Source of the DNA: Candidatus Bathyarchaeia archaeon
GTDB taxonomy: Archaea > Thermoproteota > Bathyarchaeia > Hecatellales > Hecatellaceae
Reading direction: 5' to 3'
Length of the DNA: 64,000 nucleotides
NCBI GenBank assembly: GCA_038883335.1
Contig: JAVZMI010000001.1
Coordinates: forward strand, 51,696 to 115,695
Shown: one piece after another, positions 38,425-48,633 of the stretch
Position numbering within the stretch: position 1 is the stretch's first letter
Layout: every line of letters starts with the position of its first letter
Notes under the pieces: model-generated
Databases searched by the model: none
What the model was told of the DNA's origin: nothing
What the model saw: only the letters and a program-made list of their open reading frames with translations
Position numbers and translations under genes: made by a program

Positions 38425-38781
38425 TCACCGTACGAGCCATGTTTCCTCTTCTTTCAAGCTAGCCGAGTCTGAAAATAGACGACGGAAGACGGCTACGTAT
38501 CCACGAAACTCAAGTTTGATCATCTCCTTTCCTCTCTGAGTTAGTCCATAGAGCTTTTTCTCAGCATTAGGAAGACTTTCGATTAGTCCATCTCTCCTCA
38601 ACGCTTCAATCGACGGGTAGACTGTGCCTGGGCTTAGTAGAACCATGAAGTGATTATGAATATAGCTGAGCACATCGTAACCGCACTTCGGGGAATCCTC
38701 TAGGGCTATAAGTATCAATAGATCTTTGAGGTTTTTCACACACCGTGTATAAACGTCCCTTGGAACTGGAATAACGGCCAC
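38425..38781 (-). CDS. PadR-family transcriptional regulator
   Basis: 118 aa with the wHTH ILIALEDSPKCGYDVLSYIHNHF...LSPGTVYPSIEALRRDGLIES (PadR signature). Confidence 0.7.
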   Translation of the reverse strand: MAVIPVPRDVYTRCVKNLKDLLILIALEDSPKCGYDVLSYIHNHFMVLLSPGTVYPSIEALRRDGLIESLPNAEKKLYGLTQRGKEMIKLEFRGYVAVFRRLFSDSASLKEEETWLVR

Positions 38782-38790
38782 CCACCCCCA

Positions 38791-39477
38791 TCAAGGAGTT
38801 GTATTTGAATTTATCCGTGGAGATAACTCCTCACGCTTGAAAGCAATGGTTGGATCTGGGGAAGATGCTGTAGAGTTTTTGAGGTTAGAGTTGCGTCCTT
38901 CAGAGTTTATGTGTGGGAAAGGTTGCTGGCAATATTTTGTCACGGGGCAGCCTTGGCATCGATTTTTCTGGTAGAAGAAGCACTCGAGGCAGCTATTCCC
39001 ACATGGGGTTCTTTCCAGCATTTCGGAGATTTTGAGTAGCGGCAGATGCGTTGGTTTCTCAAAGTTTCCAAAACTGACCTCTATATTCTTGAAAAGTGGA
39101 TTTAGGCGGAAATTCCTTTCAATCACCGCGCACAATGTATTGTAATCTTCAGCGGCTACCGTGGCTACTAAATTGTGAGCCCCAGTGCACGTGACTAAGC
39201 TCAGAACTCGTGGGCAGGCTTCTAGTACTTCGATGTATTGAGTGAGCCCATTTAAGTCGCTGCATGAGCAACTTACAACAGCTATTGATAGTGCAAGCCT
39301 CTCAATGTGAACTAGAGGGGTGAATTTTATAATGTTCGACGAGACCAAATATGTGAGACGTCTCTTAACCTCTGTATCTGAGACTCCAACTAGGTAAGCT
39401 ATCGCCTTGAGTTTAAGTCTCCCGTTATCCGATAGTGCTCTAATGATCTTTGTGTCCGTTTCAGTCAATACCCTCAT
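38791..39477 (-). CDS. Lrp/AsnC-family regulator (HTH plus RAM domain) with a C-terminal Cys-rich, TRASH-like putative metal-binding extension
   Basis: 228 aa. Residues 1-60 form the HTH (TKIIRALSDNGRLKLKAIAYLVGVSDTEVKRRL). Residues 60-140 form the RAM domain. Then comes CGNSCLECFFYQKNRCQGCPVTKYC, six Cys in about 26 aa. Confidence 0.65.
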   Translation of the reverse strand: MRVLTETDTKIIRALSDNGRLKLKAIAYLVGVSDTEVKRRLTYLVSSNIIKFTPLVHIERLALSIAVVSCSCSDLNGLTQYIEVLEACPRVLSLVTCTGAHNLVATVAAEDYNTLCAVIERNFRLNPLFKNIEVSFGNFEKPTHLPLLKISEMLERTPCGNSCLECFFYQKNRCQGCPVTKYCQQPFPHINSEGRNSNLKNSTASSPDPTIAFKREELSPRINSNTTP

Positions 39478-40624: not shown

Positions 40625-40843
40625 TCAACATTCCTCTACGCAGCATTTTCTTTCCATTATTTTACGAGTATAGATCTATTATGAGGTTATTTATAAATTT
40701 TGTGCACGTATAACTAAAATAATTGAAAAATAATCTATTAAAATCAATATTTTTTTAAAATAGATGTTTTTTGAGGTTATTTTTTATGTTTTTAACTCTC
40801 GGGCTTCAGAAAATATAAATTCTGAATTCCTGAATATTATTAT

Positions 40844-41158
40844 GTGGCAAGGTTGTCCGAAGAGAACCTTTGGAGTCAACTTAGACTCCTATCTCAAAAG
40901 GATGTAAGAAGAGTTTTATGCGAACTTTGCTTAGCCCCTGGTAGGAAAATGTCGCTTAAAGACCTAGCCTCTAGAACAGGGATCCCTTACACAACCGTAT
41001 ACCAGAAGATACAAGCAATGAGATCCGCAAGCCTGATTGATATGAAAGGAACGAAAAGAGAAGGCTTCACTGTCTATTTGAGAGACTTCGAACTACCGCC
41101 ACTTACCCCTGAAAGAATATGCGAGTTGGAGGGACGACCACTACCCAACATATTATGA
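40844..41158 (+). CDS. Winged-helix transcriptional regulator (ArsR/MarR-like)
   Basis: 104 aa with the HTH MSLKDLASRTGIPYTTVYQKIQAMRSASLI. Confidence 0.5.
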   Translation: MARLSEENLWSQLRLLSQKDVRRVLCELCLAPGRKMSLKDLASRTGIPYTTVYQKIQAMRSASLIDMKGTKREGFTVYLRDFELPPLTPERICELEGRPLPNIL

Positions 41159-41823
41159 GAGGGCAGATCTTGAAAGGAAACTATGTGGTCGTAGGGCTCA
41201 CCAATGAAAATGTTTGGAAAGAAGCTTTAAGATGCATTCGTAGAAATGGAGAATATATTACGGACCCTCAAAATCTAGAGAAAACCCAGGAGGTTCTAAA
41301 TCTAATCACCAGCATATTGAAGCCCTCTAACACGCTGCCTAGAGCATTCTCTAGAGACACGAAGATCAACGATCACCCCCACCTATTAGAAGGTCTAGTC
41401 AGACCTATCCCCGGCTTTAGCCCAGGAACACATCTCTGGGAATGGGCACTCCCTAGAGGACGACTGAATCAGATCGAAGATAACGTGACGAAAGTTCTCA
41501 GAAACAATCTACTCAGCCGCCGTGCAGTGGCATTAACTTTCCATCCAGGGATGGACTCTGAGCACATCCTCAACCCCCGCTATAGCTTCCCAGCTATACA
41601 GATTGTTGACTTCAAGTATAGGGAAGGGAGTCTACATCTGACCGCCTACCTGAGGTCTTGTGACATATATTCTTGGTGGCCGATAAACGTCGTCCAAGCC
41701 TACAGACTCCTCAAGAAAGTAGGAGAGAAACTTGACTTAAGTATAGGAACGCTCACATTGATGATCAGTAGCGCCCATGTCAAAGCAAGAAACCTAAAAA
41801 GGATTGAAACAATACTAGTTTAA
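41155..41823 (+). CDS. Thymidylate synthase (ThyA-fold) homolog lacking the catalytic cysteine
   Basis: 222 aa. It aligns by eye to E. coli ThyA. RRAVALTFHPG matches RRIIVSAWN, AYLRSCDIYSWWPINVVQAYRLL matches [22 protein letters not shown], and GTLTLMISSAHV matches GDFVWTGGDTHLY. The nucleophile motif P-C-H is replaced by P-R-Y. The start was taken at the internal ATG 41155; the ORF begins at 41119. Confidence 0.6.
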   Translation: MRGQILKGNYVVVGLTNENVWKEALRCIRRNGEYITDPQNLEKTQEVLNLITSILKPSNTLPRAFSRDTKINDHPHLLEGLVRPIPGFSPGTHLWEWALPRGRLNQIEDNVTKVLRNNLLSRRAVALTFHPGMDSEHILNPRYSFPAIQIVDFKYREGSLHLTAYLRSCDIYSWWPINVVQAYRLLKKVGEKLDLSIGTLTLMISSAHVKARNLKRIETILV

Positions 41824-43348: not shown

Positions 43349-45709
43349 TTGTTGCCCACGTCTCCTCAACGCTCTGAGAGAAACCCCCCCATCAACCAAA
43401 AAGGTGAAACGGAGATGAGCGAAGCGGCTAACCAAACTTGTAAAACATGCGGAGCGATCATGGAGCGGGGGAAGTGCCCCAAATGCACACCTTTTGAAGA
43501 GTTTATTAACCTTCCACTGGCGTCATGTGTGAATTGCGGTCACTATTTAGGCTTAGAGTGCCCCAGAGCTTCAATACACCAAGAGAATAGGCGAACCCGC
43601 ACCTTCACTGCAGACGACTATAAAATCTGTGAAAAGTGGACGTTAGCCATCAGAACTGCGGATGGCACAGTTTATAGACCTCTGGTGAACAAGGGAATCT
43701 CCGCTCATCCAGCCTCTCTCTTCCATAGCGGAGAAAACGGCATCATAGTTGGTGAGCTGACCTTCGCCCGTTCAGAAGTGGAAAAAACAAAGAAGGAAGA
43801 CCCAATAAAGACTAGAGAGATAACCGTTTATCTTTTTTGGTGCCACCACCACAACCACGAGCTCCAACTTTACTTTAAATCGCTCAGTGCAGTGGACGCC
43901 ATTCCCTATGGTGATAAAGAGATCTACCTCGAGAAGGATAACCTTGTGAAAGACCCAATTCAGACGTTGATACCGTTAGAGACTGTGGAGCGGGTTGCGG
44001 CTAGCCCTGAAGAGGCAAACAAAGAAGCGGAGTTCCCCGCAATTTTCAGACAGGTAAAGACAGAGCTCAGACGTTTTCTCAACCTAGAGTGGGATCCACG
44101 GCTTTACGATTTATTGGCATGTTACATTATCGCAACATACTTCTTCGACGCATTCCAAACGTTCCCATGGCTTTATTTCTATGGCTTTCAGGGATGCGGA
44201 AAAACAAGAGGAGCCCTAACGGTCACATATATGGCTAGACACGGTCACATGGTCACAAAACCGAGTGACGCTTCCATCTTCCGACTATGCCACGCCATCA
44301 AGCCCACCTTATGTGTGGACGAGGGACTGTTAGGACGGTCAGCTTGGAGTTTCGCCCGATCCACATTCAAGAAAGGCGTCAAGGTTCCACGAGTCGAGAA
44401 GACCCCACGAGAAGAGTTCGTTATTTCGCTCTTCGACTTGTACATGCCACTAGTCTTCGCTTCAACTAAGAAGCCCACTGAAGCGGGGGGGTTGAATGCG
44501 GATGAGGCACGTGCAATATTCATCCACATGGAACGAGCTCGAGACCCTATAGGTCGGGATCCCACGCCAGAAGACTTTGCCGCTCTAAGAGATCGGCTCT
44601 ACATGTTGCGGCTCTTCAAGGCTAAATGTGTCGTCGAGACGTCTAAGAACATTAATGTTCCGTTTCTGGGACATGAACGAGAAATATGGACGCCCATCTT
44701 CACGATTGCCAACTTAGTTGGGAAGGACGTTCTCTCTTCTCTCTATAAACTAGCAAACGACCTGTACGCTTCAAAGTTTGTAGAGTTAAATGTGAAAGAG
44801 AAGACAATACTTGACGCCATAGCCCTCCTATTCAAAGAAACGAACGAAAAAATTGTGTGTTTCACACCTTCTTCTCTTCAAGCGTACATCAAAACTGTGC
44901 TTATAGAAAGCGGAGAGTACGACGAACTCCACTTTCCAAAGATATGGAACGTGTATCTCATAGGCAGGCTCCTTTCAAGGATGAAACTCACACCCAAACG
45001 GGACACGGCTCGAAAATACTATATCACCCAGCCTCAGTTCGCCAAGCTTGAAAAACAATTTGGTATAGAGCTCGACGTTTTCGACGTTTTCGACGTTAAT
45101 GTGGAAGAACCATCTACCCCCACTTCAGACCCCAATACCCTATCCCTAAAATTAACGTCGAATTCGTCGAATTCGTCGAACGATAAAAAAGAAAGCTTAG
45201 ACAACGCCTCTTTAAACGAAAAAACCTTAGAAAAAGGCGAATTTAGAGATAGTGTTAAAAATAAAGCTTCTCAACCTGAAATAGAAGCTAAAAAAGACGA
45301 ACAGACCGCTCTAGAGAGTGAAAGTTTCGACGTTTTCGACGTTTTCGACGTTAATGTGGAAGAACCCCCTACCCCCACTTCAGACCCCAATACCCTATCC
45401 CTAAAATTAACGTCGAATTCGTCGAATTCGTCGAACGACGAGAGGGGGAACGGCTCTCATGGTGGCTTTAATGATGTTTCTTGCGGCACTTCTAACAGTG
45501 GTTCTGTTGGCGTTTCTAGTGAGGTTTCTAGTTGCACTGTAGAGAAGCACCACTGTCTCACAACGGAGGGTAGTGAACCTCAACCGATGGTCAGTGGAGT
45601 ACCAGGTCTCCCACCAAGGTTCAAATGTGAGATCTGTGGACGGAAGTTCCGTTTCCCCTACGATGTGCTCTCACATAAGCAAACCGACCACGGTTTAAAG
45701 GTGGTCTAA
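43349..45709 (+). CDS. Element-encoded Zn-finger/P-loop NTPase (putative replication helicase or initiator) with a C-terminal tandem-repeat region and a C2H2 zinc finger
   Basis: 786 aa. The N-terminal Zn-ribbons are CKTCG...CPKC and CVNCGH...C. Walker A is GFQGCGKT and Walker B is LCVDEG. It is followed by two copies of FDVFDVFDVNVEEP(S/P)TPTSDPNTLSLKLTSNSSNSSND and a terminal C2H2 finger FKCEICGRKFRFPYDVLSHKQTDH. Confidence 0.55.
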   Translation: MLPTSPQRSERNPPINQKGETEMSEAANQTCKTCGAIMERGKCPKCTPFEEFINLPLASCVNCGHYLGLECPRASIHQENRRTRTFTADDYKICEKWTLAIRTADGTVYRPLVNKGISAHPASLFHSGENGIIVGELTFARSEVEKTKKEDPIKTREITVYLFWCHHHNHELQLYFKSLSAVDAIPYGDKEIYLEKDNLVKDPIQTLIPLETVERVAASPEEANKEAEFPAIFRQVKTELRRFLNLEWDPRLYDLLACYIIATYFFDAFQTFPWLYFYGFQGCGKTRGALTVTYMARHGHMVTKPSDASIFRLCHAIKPTLCVDEGLLGRSAWSFARSTFKKGVKVPRVEKTPREEFVISLFDLYMPLVFASTKKPTEAGGLNADEARAIFIHMERARDPIGRDPTPEDFAALRDRLYMLRLFKAKCVVETSKNINVPFLGHEREIWTPIFTIANLVGKDVLSSLYKLANDLYASKFVELNVKEKTILDAIALLFKETNEKIVCFTPSSLQAYIKTVLIESGEYDELHFPKIWNVYLIGRLLSRMKLTPKRDTARKYYITQPQFAKLEKQFGIELDVFDVFDVNVEEPSTPTSDPNTLSLKLTSNSSNSSNDKKESLDNASLNEKTLEKGEFRDSVKNKASQPEIEAKKDEQTALESESFDVFDVFDVNVEEPPTPTSDPNTLSLKLTSNSSNSSNDERGNGSHGGFNDVSCGTSNSGSVGVSSEVSSCTVEKHHCLTTEGSEPQPMVSGVPGLPPRFKCEICGRKFRFPYDVLSHKQTDHGLKVV
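45072..45438. repeat. Two 112-nt near-identical direct repeats (45072-45183 and 45327-45438, period 255 nt) inside the 786-aa ORF, with embedded micro-repeats (tcgacgtttt x2.5; tcgaattcg x2)
   Basis: The copies were aligned directly. They differ only in ccatct versus ccccct. They encode the duplicated low-complexity protein segment. Confidence 0.8.
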
Positions 45710-46657
45710 ATGCGGAGAGAAGACTTCTGGTTTGAGTGGTTCGGCTTGTTCGGCAGAGAGGTTGGTAACCCGTTTCGGTTCTTCGTAGACAACCCTATAG
45801 ATTTCGTCAAGTTTGTTGAGAAATGTGAAGCGGCGAAGTCTCCAGTCTTCATGTCAGTGAACCATTATCGGGATCGAGACACGGTTTACGCTCTCGACAA
45901 GCTTTTCTTCGATTTTGACAACGCAACAGAGCCTGAGAAAGCCATCTATGAGGCTCTCCAGTTCGCAGAGATTTTAAAACGGTTCTACCATGCGGAGCCC
46001 TTAATCGTTCGCTCAGGTCTCAAAGGTGCGGGTGTCTACGTTTTCTTTCCACAAGCCATAACTGGAGCCCCCGAAGACTTAGCAGAGGTCTATCGCAAAG
46101 TCGCCAGCCTCATCTTGAAGGGTCTCCAGTTCTCCACGTTAGACCATCAGGTTCTGGGGGACGTTAAACGGCTAAGTCGGGTTCCTTATACACGCCACGA
46201 GAAGAGCGGTCAAATGTGCATCCCCATAAACGAGAAAGGAGTGGAAGTCAACCTGAGCGGGGAAGACTTGGCGAAAATCAGAGAGAGAAGCCCCCTACCC
46301 GCTCACATGCTCAAACTTGCATGGCACCACATCTTCTTGGAGCGGAAGGTGAGAGCGGGGGAAGGAAACCGCAACCAAGCCCCCCCTTTCAATAAGATTA
46401 GAACACCAGTTCAAGACCTCATATTGTTAGCTAAGGCTGGAGCCCACCTTTCCCACCACGGATACCTAGCCATACTCTTCGAACTCATCAACAACGGTTA
46501 CACAGACGACCAGATCCTTTCCCTCTTTAGAACGCTCTTCAAATCCAAGTTTAACGAGAAAGAGACCCGCTACTTCATCACGCATGCCCGAAAGAAACGC
46601 TACCTACCCTTCAGCATCTCACGGGTAAAACATGAACTAAATCTACTCTCACCTTAG
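45710..46657 (+). CDS. Archaeo-eukaryotic primase (AEP/prim-pol) superfamily protein
   Basis: 315 aa. It has the catalytic acidic motif LFFDFDN (hhhDhD), SGLKGAGVYVFF (SGxRG-like motif II) and LSRVPYTRHEKSG (motif III). Its start abuts the stop of the upstream NTPase gene. Confidence 0.6.
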   Translation: MRREDFWFEWFGLFGREVGNPFRFFVDNPIDFVKFVEKCEAAKSPVFMSVNHYRDRDTVYALDKLFFDFDNATEPEKAIYEALQFAEILKRFYHAEPLIVRSGLKGAGVYVFFPQAITGAPEDLAEVYRKVASLILKGLQFSTLDHQVLGDVKRLSRVPYTRHEKSGQMCIPINEKGVEVNLSGEDLAKIRERSPLPAHMLKLAWHHIFLERKVRAGEGNRNQAPPFNKIRTPVQDLILLAKAGAHLSHHGYLAILFELINNGYTDDQILSLFRTLFKSKFNEKETRYFITHARKKRYLPFSISRVKHELNLLSP

Positions 46658-47385: not shown

Positions 47386-48633
47386 TTAAGTTAGAAGCTT
47401 CCTTATCTCCGCAACCTCTTCCAACGCCCTGTTAATCCTTCCAGTGAGCTCCGTGTTCTCCAACTCCAACCTTGCCATCCTGCTCTTAAGCTCCAAGTTT
47501 TCTGCAGAGAGGTTCTCTATCACCTTCTGGAGGCTTTGGATGCGTTCATCCACCTTGGCGTCAACCTTCCTCTCAATCTCCGACGGGTCGACTGGAGGGG
47601 GGGTTATGCTCAGTAAGCGTTCCCGTTCGAGATACATCTTCCTGAGGCTCTCAAACTGGAGCCCTTTATACGCTTCCGCCATCTCTCCGATTGCATGCCC
47701 TAACCAGAAGTCAACTATGGTGTCTGGTACGCCTGAGTTAATCATTATGCTACCGAAGCTTTCACGCAAGGCATGGGGACTTAACGGGTTGATGTCTCTA
47801 CCGTTATTATAGGGGTCTATGAAGCCCGCCTTTAATGCCACCTCTCTCAACATGTTCTGGACTAGGTGTGGTTGAAGTGGAGCCCCATGTGGTCGTTCCC
47901 TTTGGAATAGTGGCGAACCGTCTTGAAGCTTCACACCTCTGGCTTCAAGGTCTCGGAGGTAGACTTTGACTGCTTCTATTGCGTCACGCCCAAGGAATGT
48001 GAAATATTCCACTCCAGTTTTCGGTCGGTAGAGGTCTAGCTTGAGGGGGATCTCTCCAGACTCGAGACCTCTCCGTATGTCTCCATATTTGAGACTGCAC
48101 AGTGTCGAGACATCCATCCCGCTTTGAAACATGGTGAGAATGACGGCTTTGTCACGGGGGTTCCTTGCATGATCCACCAACAACTTGACCTGACTAGAGC
48201 TCAACCTCATCCTTCGGTTGGTTACCTTCGGTTTGGGAAGCCTGTAGCGGCCCTTAAGGCGCACTTCAACGTCGAAAGTCGAGTAGAAGCTTCTTATGGC
48301 GGTTATGTAGAGGTTTGCGGCTTTATCGCTCAAACCCTTCTTGACTTCTGTATGTTCGCATCTTCCACGCCTTTTTATGGGGTAATCCTTTTTCAAATAT
48401 TGGTAGAACCCGACTATCCTGTTGAGGACTATGCCACGCCTTTGGCGTATGTCTCTGGTTTGGTCTTCTACGGCTTCGTCGATGAGTTGGCTTGCGGTTA
48501 GACCTGTGAAGGCTAGGTATGCTCTGATGGCGGTTTTGTAGCTTGCTTTGGTAGACGGTTTAGTTACGGGGTCAAGCCACCTTGATATGGCGGGGTCTTC
48601 TAAGTTTATCAGCTCAATTTGTGGAGACGACAT
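47386..48633 (-). CDS. int: Tyrosine recombinase/integrase (phage-integrase family), full length
   Basis: 415 aa with an N-terminal SAM-like domain. The C-terminal catalytic domain has R...HALRESFGS (H-x-x-R)...GHAIGEMAEAYKG with a terminal Tyr region. The gene is not split, which points to a pNOB8-type integrase. Confidence 0.8.
   Translation of the reverse strand: MSSPQIELINLEDPAISRWLDPVTKPSTKASYKTAIRAYLAFTGLTASQLIDEAVEDQTRDIRQRRGIVLNRIVGFYQYLKKDYPIKRRGRCEHTEVKKGLSDKAANLYITAIRSFYSTFDVEVRLKGRYRLPKPKVTNRRMRLSSSQVKLLVDHARNPRDKAVILTMFQSGMDVSTLCSLKYGDIRRGLESGEIPLKLDLYRPKTGVEYFTFLGRDAIEAVKVYLRDLEARGVKLQDGSPLFQRERPHGAPLQPHLVQNMLREVALKAGFIDPYNNGRDINPLSPHALRESFGSIMINSGVPDTIVDFWLGHAIGEMAEAYKGLQFESLRKMYLERERLLSITPPPVDPSEIERKVDAKVDERIQSLQKVIENLSAENLELKSRMARLELENTELTGRINRALEEVAEIRKLLT

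Follow-up and report, generated by a model that had tools for sequence, protein, structure and literature searches.

Can a protein that has the fold of thymidylate synthase (TS) and lacks the nucleophilic cysteine of that enzyme be a thymidylate synthase, and if it is not, what may its function be? The question is raised by a gene in a 64,000-nucleotide stretch of contig JAVZMI010000001.1 from a Candidatus Bathyarchaeia archaeon, which we refer to as the window. The gene is an intact open reading frame (ORF) on the forward strand at positions 41155–41823, as delineated in an earlier sequence-only reading of the window, and encodes a TS-like protein of 222 residues. In the public NCBI entry, named 'MAG: thymidylate synthase [Candidatus Bathyarchaeia archaeon]' and belonging to a 207-kb contig, the start is placed 36 nucleotides further upstream, at position 41119, which gives a protein of 234 residues. 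The ATG codon at position 41155 overlaps the TGA stop codon of the preceding ORF (40844–41158), which encodes a winged helix-turn-helix (wHTH) protein, in the sequence ATGA. We number the residues of the TS-like protein from position 41155 because of this overlap and because the two genes abut each other in relatives. The name given in the public entry is wrong, and the TS-like protein is probably a pseudoenzyme.

The TS-like protein has the alpha/beta fold of thymidylate synthases. It matches the Pfam family PF00303 above the gathering score (E = 1.7e-10) in residues 101–220 only, and it matches TIGR03283, the model of the short, 'methanogen-type' TSs of about 200 residues, over the full length (E = 2e-23; residues 18–216 aligned to model positions 9–200 of 201). 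Matches to the TS families of the PHROG database reach 1.3e-14. The structure predicted by AlphaFold2 (AF2) from 101 homologues has a predicted local distance difference test (pLDDT) score of 95.2 and a predicted template modeling (pTM) score of 0.91; it superseded a model calculated from the single sequence, which had a pLDDT of 49 and was unusable. Foldseek comparisons of the model with the PDB and with viral models agreed on the TS fold, and the nearest solved structure is that of a flavin enzyme. The profile and structure comparisons by which the fold could be checked thus gave significant matches, and the TS fold proposed in the sequence-only reading was borne out by each of them. The score of the TIGR03283 match is 82.9 bits, which is under half of the equivalog cut-off of 174.55, and none of the bacterial ThyA equivalog models gives more than 31 bits, against cut-offs of 108 to 576. 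Judged by sequence comparison, the protein shares the TS fold and falls outside the enzyme family on this curated score and on three defining residues.

The first of these residues is the nucleophile. No alignment by phmmer, hhalign, or MAFFT places a cysteine at its position, and the cysteine that a profile alignment might have restored there did not appear. The protein contains two cysteines in total, Cys27 (in EALRCIRR) and Cys169 (in RSCD), and none in residues 28–168. When phmmer and hhalign were used with E. coli ThyA alone, the segment N-P-Arg142-Y was placed under A-P-Cys146-H, with a five-residue gap in the next hairpin, and the MAFFT alignment with the best 150 homologues placed F-P-Ala147 under P-Cys146. 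The nucleophile position and the equivalent of Arg166 are 20 residues apart, without gaps, in E. coli ThyA, in canonical short TSs (e.g. P0012), and in the phage enzyme AfhB, and the same spacing separates Ala147 from Arg167 in the window protein; in this register, the loop before the nucleophile position takes up the five extra residues. Pro146 is invariant in the clade to which the window protein belongs (13 of 13 members) and in relatives that possess the cysteine (82 of 82), and Pro141 and Arg142 are not conserved. In the AF2 model, residues 138–147 form a coil, and a strand begins at residue 148. Because of the 20-residue spacing, the invariant proline, and the strand register of the model, the residue replacing the nucleophilic cysteine is most likely Ala147 (codon GCT, 41593–41595), so that Pro146-Ala147 corresponds to Pro145-Cys146 of E. 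coli ThyA. Arg142 was rejected on the same three grounds.

The sequence-only reading had stated that the cysteine was replaced by an arginine and that classical methylation of deoxyuridine monophosphate (dUMP) was impossible. The absence of the cysteine and the impossibility of this covalent chemistry stand, and the arginine gives way to Ala147. It had also pointed to the cysteine of the YLRSCD segment as an alternative nucleophile. Cys169 was ruled out in this role, since cysteine is found at its position in six of the 13 clade members, and serine, leucine, or isoleucine in the rest. E. coli ThyA has the same cysteine (Cys168), which is not catalytic there.

The other two defining residues are tyrosines. 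We compared the 13 members of the query clade with the 82 Cys-type relatives at the positions for which conservation among the latter reaches 80% or more. Position 146, in E. coli numbering, is a cysteine in all 82 Cys-type relatives and is occupied in the query clade by alanine (six members), isoleucine (two), proline (two), threonine (one), serine, or arginine. Tyr94 of the Y-G motif, which is present in 78 of the 82, is substituted by alanine, leucine, serine, or proline in the clade; the window protein has Pro90 at this position. Tyr209 occurs in 74 of the 82, and the clade has arginine in six members and lysine and histidine in one each. The lysine is that of the window protein, in which His208-Val-Lys210 corresponds to His207-Leu-Tyr209 of E. 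coli ThyA, and the H.Y block perceived in the sequence-only reading is consequently not there.

Other residues of the active site are retained to different degrees. The equivalents of Arg127, Arg166, and Asn177 (Arg123, Arg167, and Asn178 in the window protein) are present in 13 of 13 clade members each. Arg122-Arg123 corresponds to Arg126 and Arg127 of E. coli ThyA, and the equivalent of Arg126 is found in seven of the 13. The segment Arg167-Ser168-Cys169-Asp170 corresponds to residues Arg166 to Asp169, of which the equivalent of Ser167 is kept in eight clade members and that of Asp169 is an aspartate or glutamate in 12. The equivalent of His207 is kept in eight. Trp174, which takes the place of Gly173, and Gln181 are invariant in the query clade only; the position of Trp174 is occupied by alanine or glycine in other clades. 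The N-terminal halves of the window protein and E. coli ThyA align unreliably, and the equivalents of Arg21 and Glu58 were therefore not assigned. Glu46, considered as the equivalent of Glu58, was dropped for this reason; the residue comparison maps Glu58 to Ser28.

In ThyA, Tyr94 is the general base for the abstraction of the C5 proton, and the residues lost from the clade are needed for covalent catalysis and for gripping the 3'-OH of the deoxyribose. The residues kept serve to hold the phosphate and to recognise the face of the uracil, and Arg127 reaches into the active site of the partner subunit. This combination of lost catalytic residues and kept nucleotide contacts suggests a role in binding and not in catalysis. 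According to the alignment, the nucleotide pocket is probably intact, and Trp174 is predicted to lie at the rim of what was once the cofactor site. Clade members that are about 30% identical to each other keep their shared invariants, and the model of the window protein has a pLDDT of 95; the gene is therefore under constraint and not decaying. To our knowledge, every characterised TS-fold relative, including ThyA, the hydroxymethylases of deoxycytidine monophosphate (dCMP), dUMP, and cytidine monophosphate (CMP), and the 5-hydroxy-dCMP synthases, uses the same cysteine. Full-text searches of the literature outside subscription journals yielded no description of Cys-less, inactive, or pseudo-TS proteins.

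Word-indexed protein searches gave very few matches to the TS-like protein, and the family was revealed by an HMMER scan in which 1.84 billion representative sequences were searched exhaustively and 417 relatives were identified. In a neighbour-joining tree, a quick distance tree the branching order of which is provisional, the short TS-like superfamily divides into four groups. Group A comprises the proteins with Cys146 and Tyr209, including MtrA-TS-DUF4346 fusions. Group B is a large clade with glycine, serine, or alanine at position 146, phenylalanine at position 209, and Tyr94 retained. Group C is the query clade and contains P0001, P0003, P0004, P0005/P0152, P0006, P0007, P0008, P0013, P0015, P0054, and P0071, together with a sub-branch of P0070 and P0094. 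The sister group of C includes P0024, P0145, P0084, and P0011. Clade C is rare, and nearly all of its members are singleton clusters from metagenomes. A scan of contigs from one genome per species gave no confirmed clade relatives and did not recover the source genome itself. The sequence-only reading had proposed a search for homologs in archaeal viruses and plasmids, and none were found: the IMG/VR viral contigs, scanned with the clade alignment, contained no confirmed relatives, and what tblastn detected in isolated phages and PLSDB plasmids was limited to distant canonical TS genes, such as that of Methanobacterium virus PhiF1 (25% identity), with no clade members among them.

Two further observations concern the other branches of the tree. 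Group B, with about 50 representatives in addition to P0010 and P0158, consists of Cys-less TS-like proteins of about 215 residues from archaea, for example Aenigmarchaeota, in which Cys146 is changed to glycine, serine, or alanine and Tyr209 to phenylalanine, and Tyr94, Arg166, Asp169, Asn177, and His207 are kept. Their genes are likewise annotated 'thymidylate synthase' and are located in a conserved operon between the genes for a 542-residue unknown protein and a DUF429-like protein of 176 residues (L007, 5249–5905; also L008 and L009). In P0026, P0055, and P0025, which are 460 to 840 residues long, a canonical, Cys-containing short TS is joined to an N-terminal MtrA-like and a C-terminal PterinBD-DUF4346 domain, a hint that the cofactor of the Cys-containing branch may be a pterin, of the methanopterin type or another.

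A further feature of the query clade is its partner gene. In the window, this gene (40844–41158, forward strand, GTG start) encodes an ArsR/HTH_20-like wHTH protein of 104 residues, which matches HTH_20 (PF12840) with 30.8 bits (gathering threshold 27; E = 2.9e-7) and many other wHTH families more weakly; its matches in PADLOC are to generic Csa3/CasR-type HTH models only. The main branch was examined in nine independent lineages, namely the window and loci L001, L004, L005, L006, L010, L011, L013, and L016. In all nine, an ORF of 97–133 residues is located directly upstream of the TS-like gene on the same strand. The upstream ORFs are homologous to each other (about 33% identity, BLAST E down to 1e-17), and the tail that follows the wing carries a conserved F-x-[IL]-P-x-[LV]-T-P motif. 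When the genes of the nine loci were clustered by all-against-all BLAST, no further gene proved common to them all. The operon with a wHTH regulator that had been read from the window sequence is thus confirmed by the ATGA overlap, the HTH_20 match, and the presence of the partner in all nine of these lineages.

Upstream of the wHTH gene is an inverted repeat, TTCAGAA-N8-TTCTGAA (40805–40826, forward strand), which lies 18–39 nucleotides before the GTG start codon and the spacer of which, AATATAAA, is a TATA-like box. The repeat is plausible as a candidate promoter/operator. TTCNGA half-sites upstream of the wHTH genes at other loci number 12, compared with 4.6 ± 2.4 in random windows; since this enrichment is weak and post hoc, an operator motif shared across the loci was set aside.

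Other neighbors occur at some of the loci. A family of HD proteins of about 450 residues is encoded divergently from the gene pair in five of the nine lineages, in each case on the reverse strand (L001, 3461–4777; L004, 1–1239; L006, 2698–4056; L010, 443–1810; L011, 4908–6329). The proteins contain conserved H..HD..DxDxLxY motifs, which we take to resemble the metal site of SAMHD1 and dGTPase. The family has diverged so far that it escapes the Pfam and NCBIfam models, apart from weak profile matches that are restricted to the L001 copy (dGTP_triPase, E = 4e-4; PADLOC dGTPase, E = 3.7e-5). At L005, a thymidylate kinase gene (2051–2668) is located about 500 nucleotides downstream of the pair on the same strand. 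At L013 (1–16741; also L014 and L015), the pair is found among genes for AIPR, BilD_N/ThiF-like E1, NYN, Dcm methylase, HhH-GPD, and PLDc_2 proteins, in a region that is like a defence island. This stretch also contains a truncated paralogue of a class-II aminoacyl-tRNA synthetase (tRNA-synt_2, 341 residues). At L003 (2247–8732), the gene for P0094, in which the cysteine is replaced by alanine, adjoins genes for an HpaB-type flavin monooxygenase, a flavin reductase, a tRNA-synt_1b paralogue, and a radical SAM protein, which possibly form a small biosynthetic cluster.

In the sister clade, Cys-less TS domains are found beside effectors. P0145 and P0166 contain such a domain fused to DUF4062; the sequence at the nucleophile position is P-A-P-Q, Tyr94 is changed to histidine, and His207 to tyrosine. 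P0024, P0011, and P0167 combine the Cys-less TS domain with an alpha/beta-hydrolase-like domain. P0168 is unfused, and its operon consists of genes for a peptidase_C1 protein, a 248-residue ORF, SIR2_2, the TS-like protein, a radical SAM protein, and Nmad3, with an adjoining insertion sequence (IS) element. A TS-like gene of the sister clade is located at L017, 2355–3389 (also L018). The fusions and the operon look like the architecture of a conflict system. DUF4062 has been described as a TIR-like NADase that serves anti-phage systems as their effector and has accessory or flanking regions that function as sensors (bioRxiv 10.64898/2026.05.01.722283; 10.64898/2026.06.25.731849), and the P0145 and P0166 fusions match the sensor-plus-NADase logic of the DUF4062/NIR defence proteins Swarozyc and Evangelion described there. 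An effector domain like theirs is missing from the window protein. The main texts of the two preprints mention neither 'thymidylate' nor 'ThyA'. The neighboring clade thus offers indirect evidence that a Cys-less TS domain may be used as a non-catalytic module beside effectors.

The gene pair of the window is located in an island of reduced GC content, 0.414 at 40–42 kb as against 0.47–0.51 in the flanks. To the left of the island are the chromosomal replication genes for a Hel308-like helicase, MCM, and GINS (31.9–36.8 kb), and to the right are PurP-like, CorA, and MoeA genes. The island itself carries several wHTH genes. It encodes a tyrosine recombinase/integrase (47386–48633, reverse strand; PF00589, E = 3e-18) and a primase-like protein (45710–46657, forward strand), which has a weak DNA_primase_lrg match as well as matches to PHROG 9660 and a primase PHROG. 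A 786-residue protein (43349–45709, forward strand), which has a P-loop (GFQGCGKT) as well as zinc-ribbon-like CxxC pairs and ends in a C2H2 finger, is probably the replication protein of the element. Because of the integrase, the primase-like and 786-residue genes, and the dip in GC content, the sequence supports an integrated plasmid- or provirus-like element, and the mobile-element setting put forward in the sequence-only reading was retained, with no convincing flanking attachment-site (att) repeats around the island. A tRNA scan found no tRNA gene in the window.

Further features of the island were noted. Within the ORF of the 786-residue protein, a 112-nucleotide direct repeat (45072–45183 and 45327–45438; 98% identical) duplicates the peptide segment ...FDVFDVNVEEP.TPTSDPNTLSLKLTSNSSNSSND... 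An AsnC/Lrp-type regulator encoded at the left margin of the island (38791–39477, reverse strand) has an extra Cys-rich C-terminal segment, …TPCGNSCLECFFYQKNRCQGCPVTKYC…, and is adjoined by a PadR-like gene (38425–38781).

The comparisons show that the protein keeps the TS fold and the pocket residues, that the catalytic residues are lost, that this pattern is conserved across the clade, and that the two genes are linked. On this basis, we tentatively propose that the pseudo-TS senses a uracil or thymine nucleotide and controls transcription through its wHTH partner, a chain of steps that as a whole is possible rather than probable. The pseudo-TS would keep a dimer-type pocket for a pyrimidine mononucleotide, in which Arg123 and Arg167 may clamp the phosphate and Asn178 may read the uracil or thymine, and would be translated together with the wHTH protein, the two genes forming a conserved module. 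We infer both the binding of a ligand and its identity: dUMP, deoxythymidine monophosphate (dTMP), or a virus-made derivative would serve as the signal. A putative contact between the pseudo-TS and the wHTH protein would alter transcription from the adjacent promoter or promoters, and the mobile element or island would thereby couple gene expression to the deoxypyrimidine pool. The neighbor under this control would, in five lineages, be the divergent SAMHD1-like HD phosphohydrolase.

The recurrence of genes related to the nucleotide pool, with the HD protein at five of the nine loci and the thymidylate kinase at L005, argues for this proposal. The sequence-only reading had listed a pseudo-enzyme or nucleotide-binding regulator among its options, and this one is favored by the clade-wide residue pattern and by the wHTH partner in all nine lineages. 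Several observations weigh against the proposal. P0070 and P0094, the sub-branch of clade C, retain Tyr209, and the locus of P0094, the one of these two members that was examined, has no wHTH neighbor. The rarity of the clade, which is known mostly from singleton metagenomic contigs, makes the statistics of gene context small. A profile hidden Markov model of the HD family matched none of the ORFs in the window, which accordingly does not have the arrangement of three genes.

An analogy for the general concept is PyrR, a homologue of uracil phosphoribosyltransferase that senses uridine mono- and triphosphate (UMP and UTP) and regulates pyr genes. As proposed here for the pseudo-TS, a fold of nucleotide metabolism keeps its ligand pocket for the purpose of regulation. 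The two folds are unrelated, and PyrR binds RNA itself, whereas the pseudo-TS would rely on a separate wHTH protein. A broader proposal, which we regard as rather unlikely, is that the Cys-less TS fold is an unrecognised sensor domain for pyrimidine nucleotides, possibly modified by viruses, in prokaryotic conflict systems. The sister clade would then be wired to an NADase (DUF4062/NIR) or an alpha/beta-hydrolase, or placed beside SIR2, and the window clade would signal through the wHTH protein, often near a SAMHD1-like dNTPase. Such sensing would allow mobile elements and defence islands to read the deoxypyrimidine pool, or the precursors of hypermodified DNA, and to respond by gene switching or immunity.

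The alternatives to a regulatory binding protein differ in how much of the evidence they accommodate. The one closest to it, with which it shares the sensing step, assigns the TS-like protein to a small immune or addiction module, as its sensor or effector, and not to regulation of the housekeeping type; we consider this rather unlikely. In an immune module, the detection of a virus-made pyrimidine nucleotide would trigger defence, for example by de-repression of an HD enzyme that depletes dNTPs. In an addiction module, the protein would be a toxin or sponge that sequesters dUMP or poisons the dimeric TS of the host through heterodimers, and the wHTH protein would be the antitoxin or repressor. 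The location of the gene on an integrated element, the defence-island-like region at L013, the SAMHD1-like neighbors at five of the nine loci, and the sister-clade proteins fused to the DUF4062 NADase or encoded beside SIR2_2 are consistent with such a module, as is the layout of an HTH gene followed by a second gene with overlapping stop and start codons, which resembles that of toxin-antitoxin pairs. In addition, the invariant equivalent of Arg127 implies that the protein is probably dimeric. However, no effector gene is universally linked to the pair, and there is none in the window; neither the TS-like protein nor the sister-clade fusions match any PADLOC defence model; and the IMG/VR, isolated-phage, and plasmid searches gave no relatives. 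The sequence-only reading had suggested a role in DNA modification or anti-defence. The former is disfavored, as the gene has no glycosyltransferase, kinase, or dNMP-modifying neighbors and no relatives among isolated phages or plasmids; the latter is not supported, though not refuted, and the gene contexts lean towards control of the nucleotide pool or defence.

It is unlikely that the protein is an enzyme that works without the nucleophile, catalysing a flavin- or other cofactor-dependent reaction of a pyrimidine nucleotide by analogy with ThyX or dCMP hydroxylase, or acting on another substrate. The nearest solved structure, being that of a flavin enzyme, speaks for it, but this enzyme has retained the cysteine. 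The flavin-dependent dCMP 5-hydroxylases of phages (5hodCMP synthases; AfhB of HY126, PDB 9iqu and 9iqc; gp48 of RB69) are 16% identical to the window protein and have Cys146, Asn169, and Asp177, the latter conferring cytosine specificity together with Asn169, whereas the window protein has alanine, aspartate, and asparagine at these positions. The 5-hydroxy-dCMP synthases described in 2025–26 keep Cys146 and carry signature residues at positions 169 and 177 (PMC13326640). The hydroxylases thus combine the cysteine with D169N and N177D changes, and the query clade has neither. The hydroxymethylases of CMP and dCMP (MilA, PDB 5jnh and 5b6d; T4 gp42, 6l18) are active enzymes with the cysteine nucleophile and Asp177, and their contexts, antibiotic biosynthesis or phage DNA modification, are not seen at the window locus. 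The window protein accordingly lacks the signature common to hydroxylases and hydroxymethylases, Cys146 and Asp177, as well as the Asn169 of the hydroxylases. Three catalytic or positioning residues were lost together, position 146 is variable (A/I/P/T/S/R), unlike a recruited catalytic residue, and Cys169 is limited to less than half of the clade. The obligatory partner is a DNA-binding protein and not an enzyme that supplies a cofactor or processes nucleotides. That the protein is an ordinary divergent thymidylate synthase, or the decaying relic of one, is very improbable, even though it passes the Pfam gathering threshold and public sources label it and several relatives 'thymidylate synthase'. 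It shares with the short TSs (TIGR03283/PF00303) the full-length architecture, the fold, and the motifs SRRA, D-F-K, L-x-L-T-A-Y-x-R-S-x-D, W-P-x-N, and S-A-H. Unlike them, it has no P-C nucleophile, no tyrosine in the Y-G motif, and none in the H-x-Y motif; it has a five-residue insertion (Y-x-F) before the proline and the clade-specific Trp174; and it is linked to a wHTH gene in the nine lineages. No cysteine can be placed at the nucleophile position, the TIGR03283 score falls far below its cut-off, and the losses are common to a clade of about 30% identity with its own invariants and a conserved partner gene.

The TS fold is among the best-studied enzyme folds. If the reading as a sensory pseudo-TS is true, the clade of the window protein would be the first TS-fold pseudoenzyme and a candidate nucleotide sensor that is tied genetically to a DNA-binding protein. 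The label 'thymidylate synthase' on such genes would introduce errors when metabolism is reconstructed from Bathyarchaeia and DPANN genomes, and the same problem affects group B, with its glycine or serine at the nucleophile position. Together with the NADase-fused sister clade, the pseudo-TS and its wHTH partner suggest, in testable form, how the mobile elements and defence islands of archaea may monitor deoxypyrimidine metabolism.

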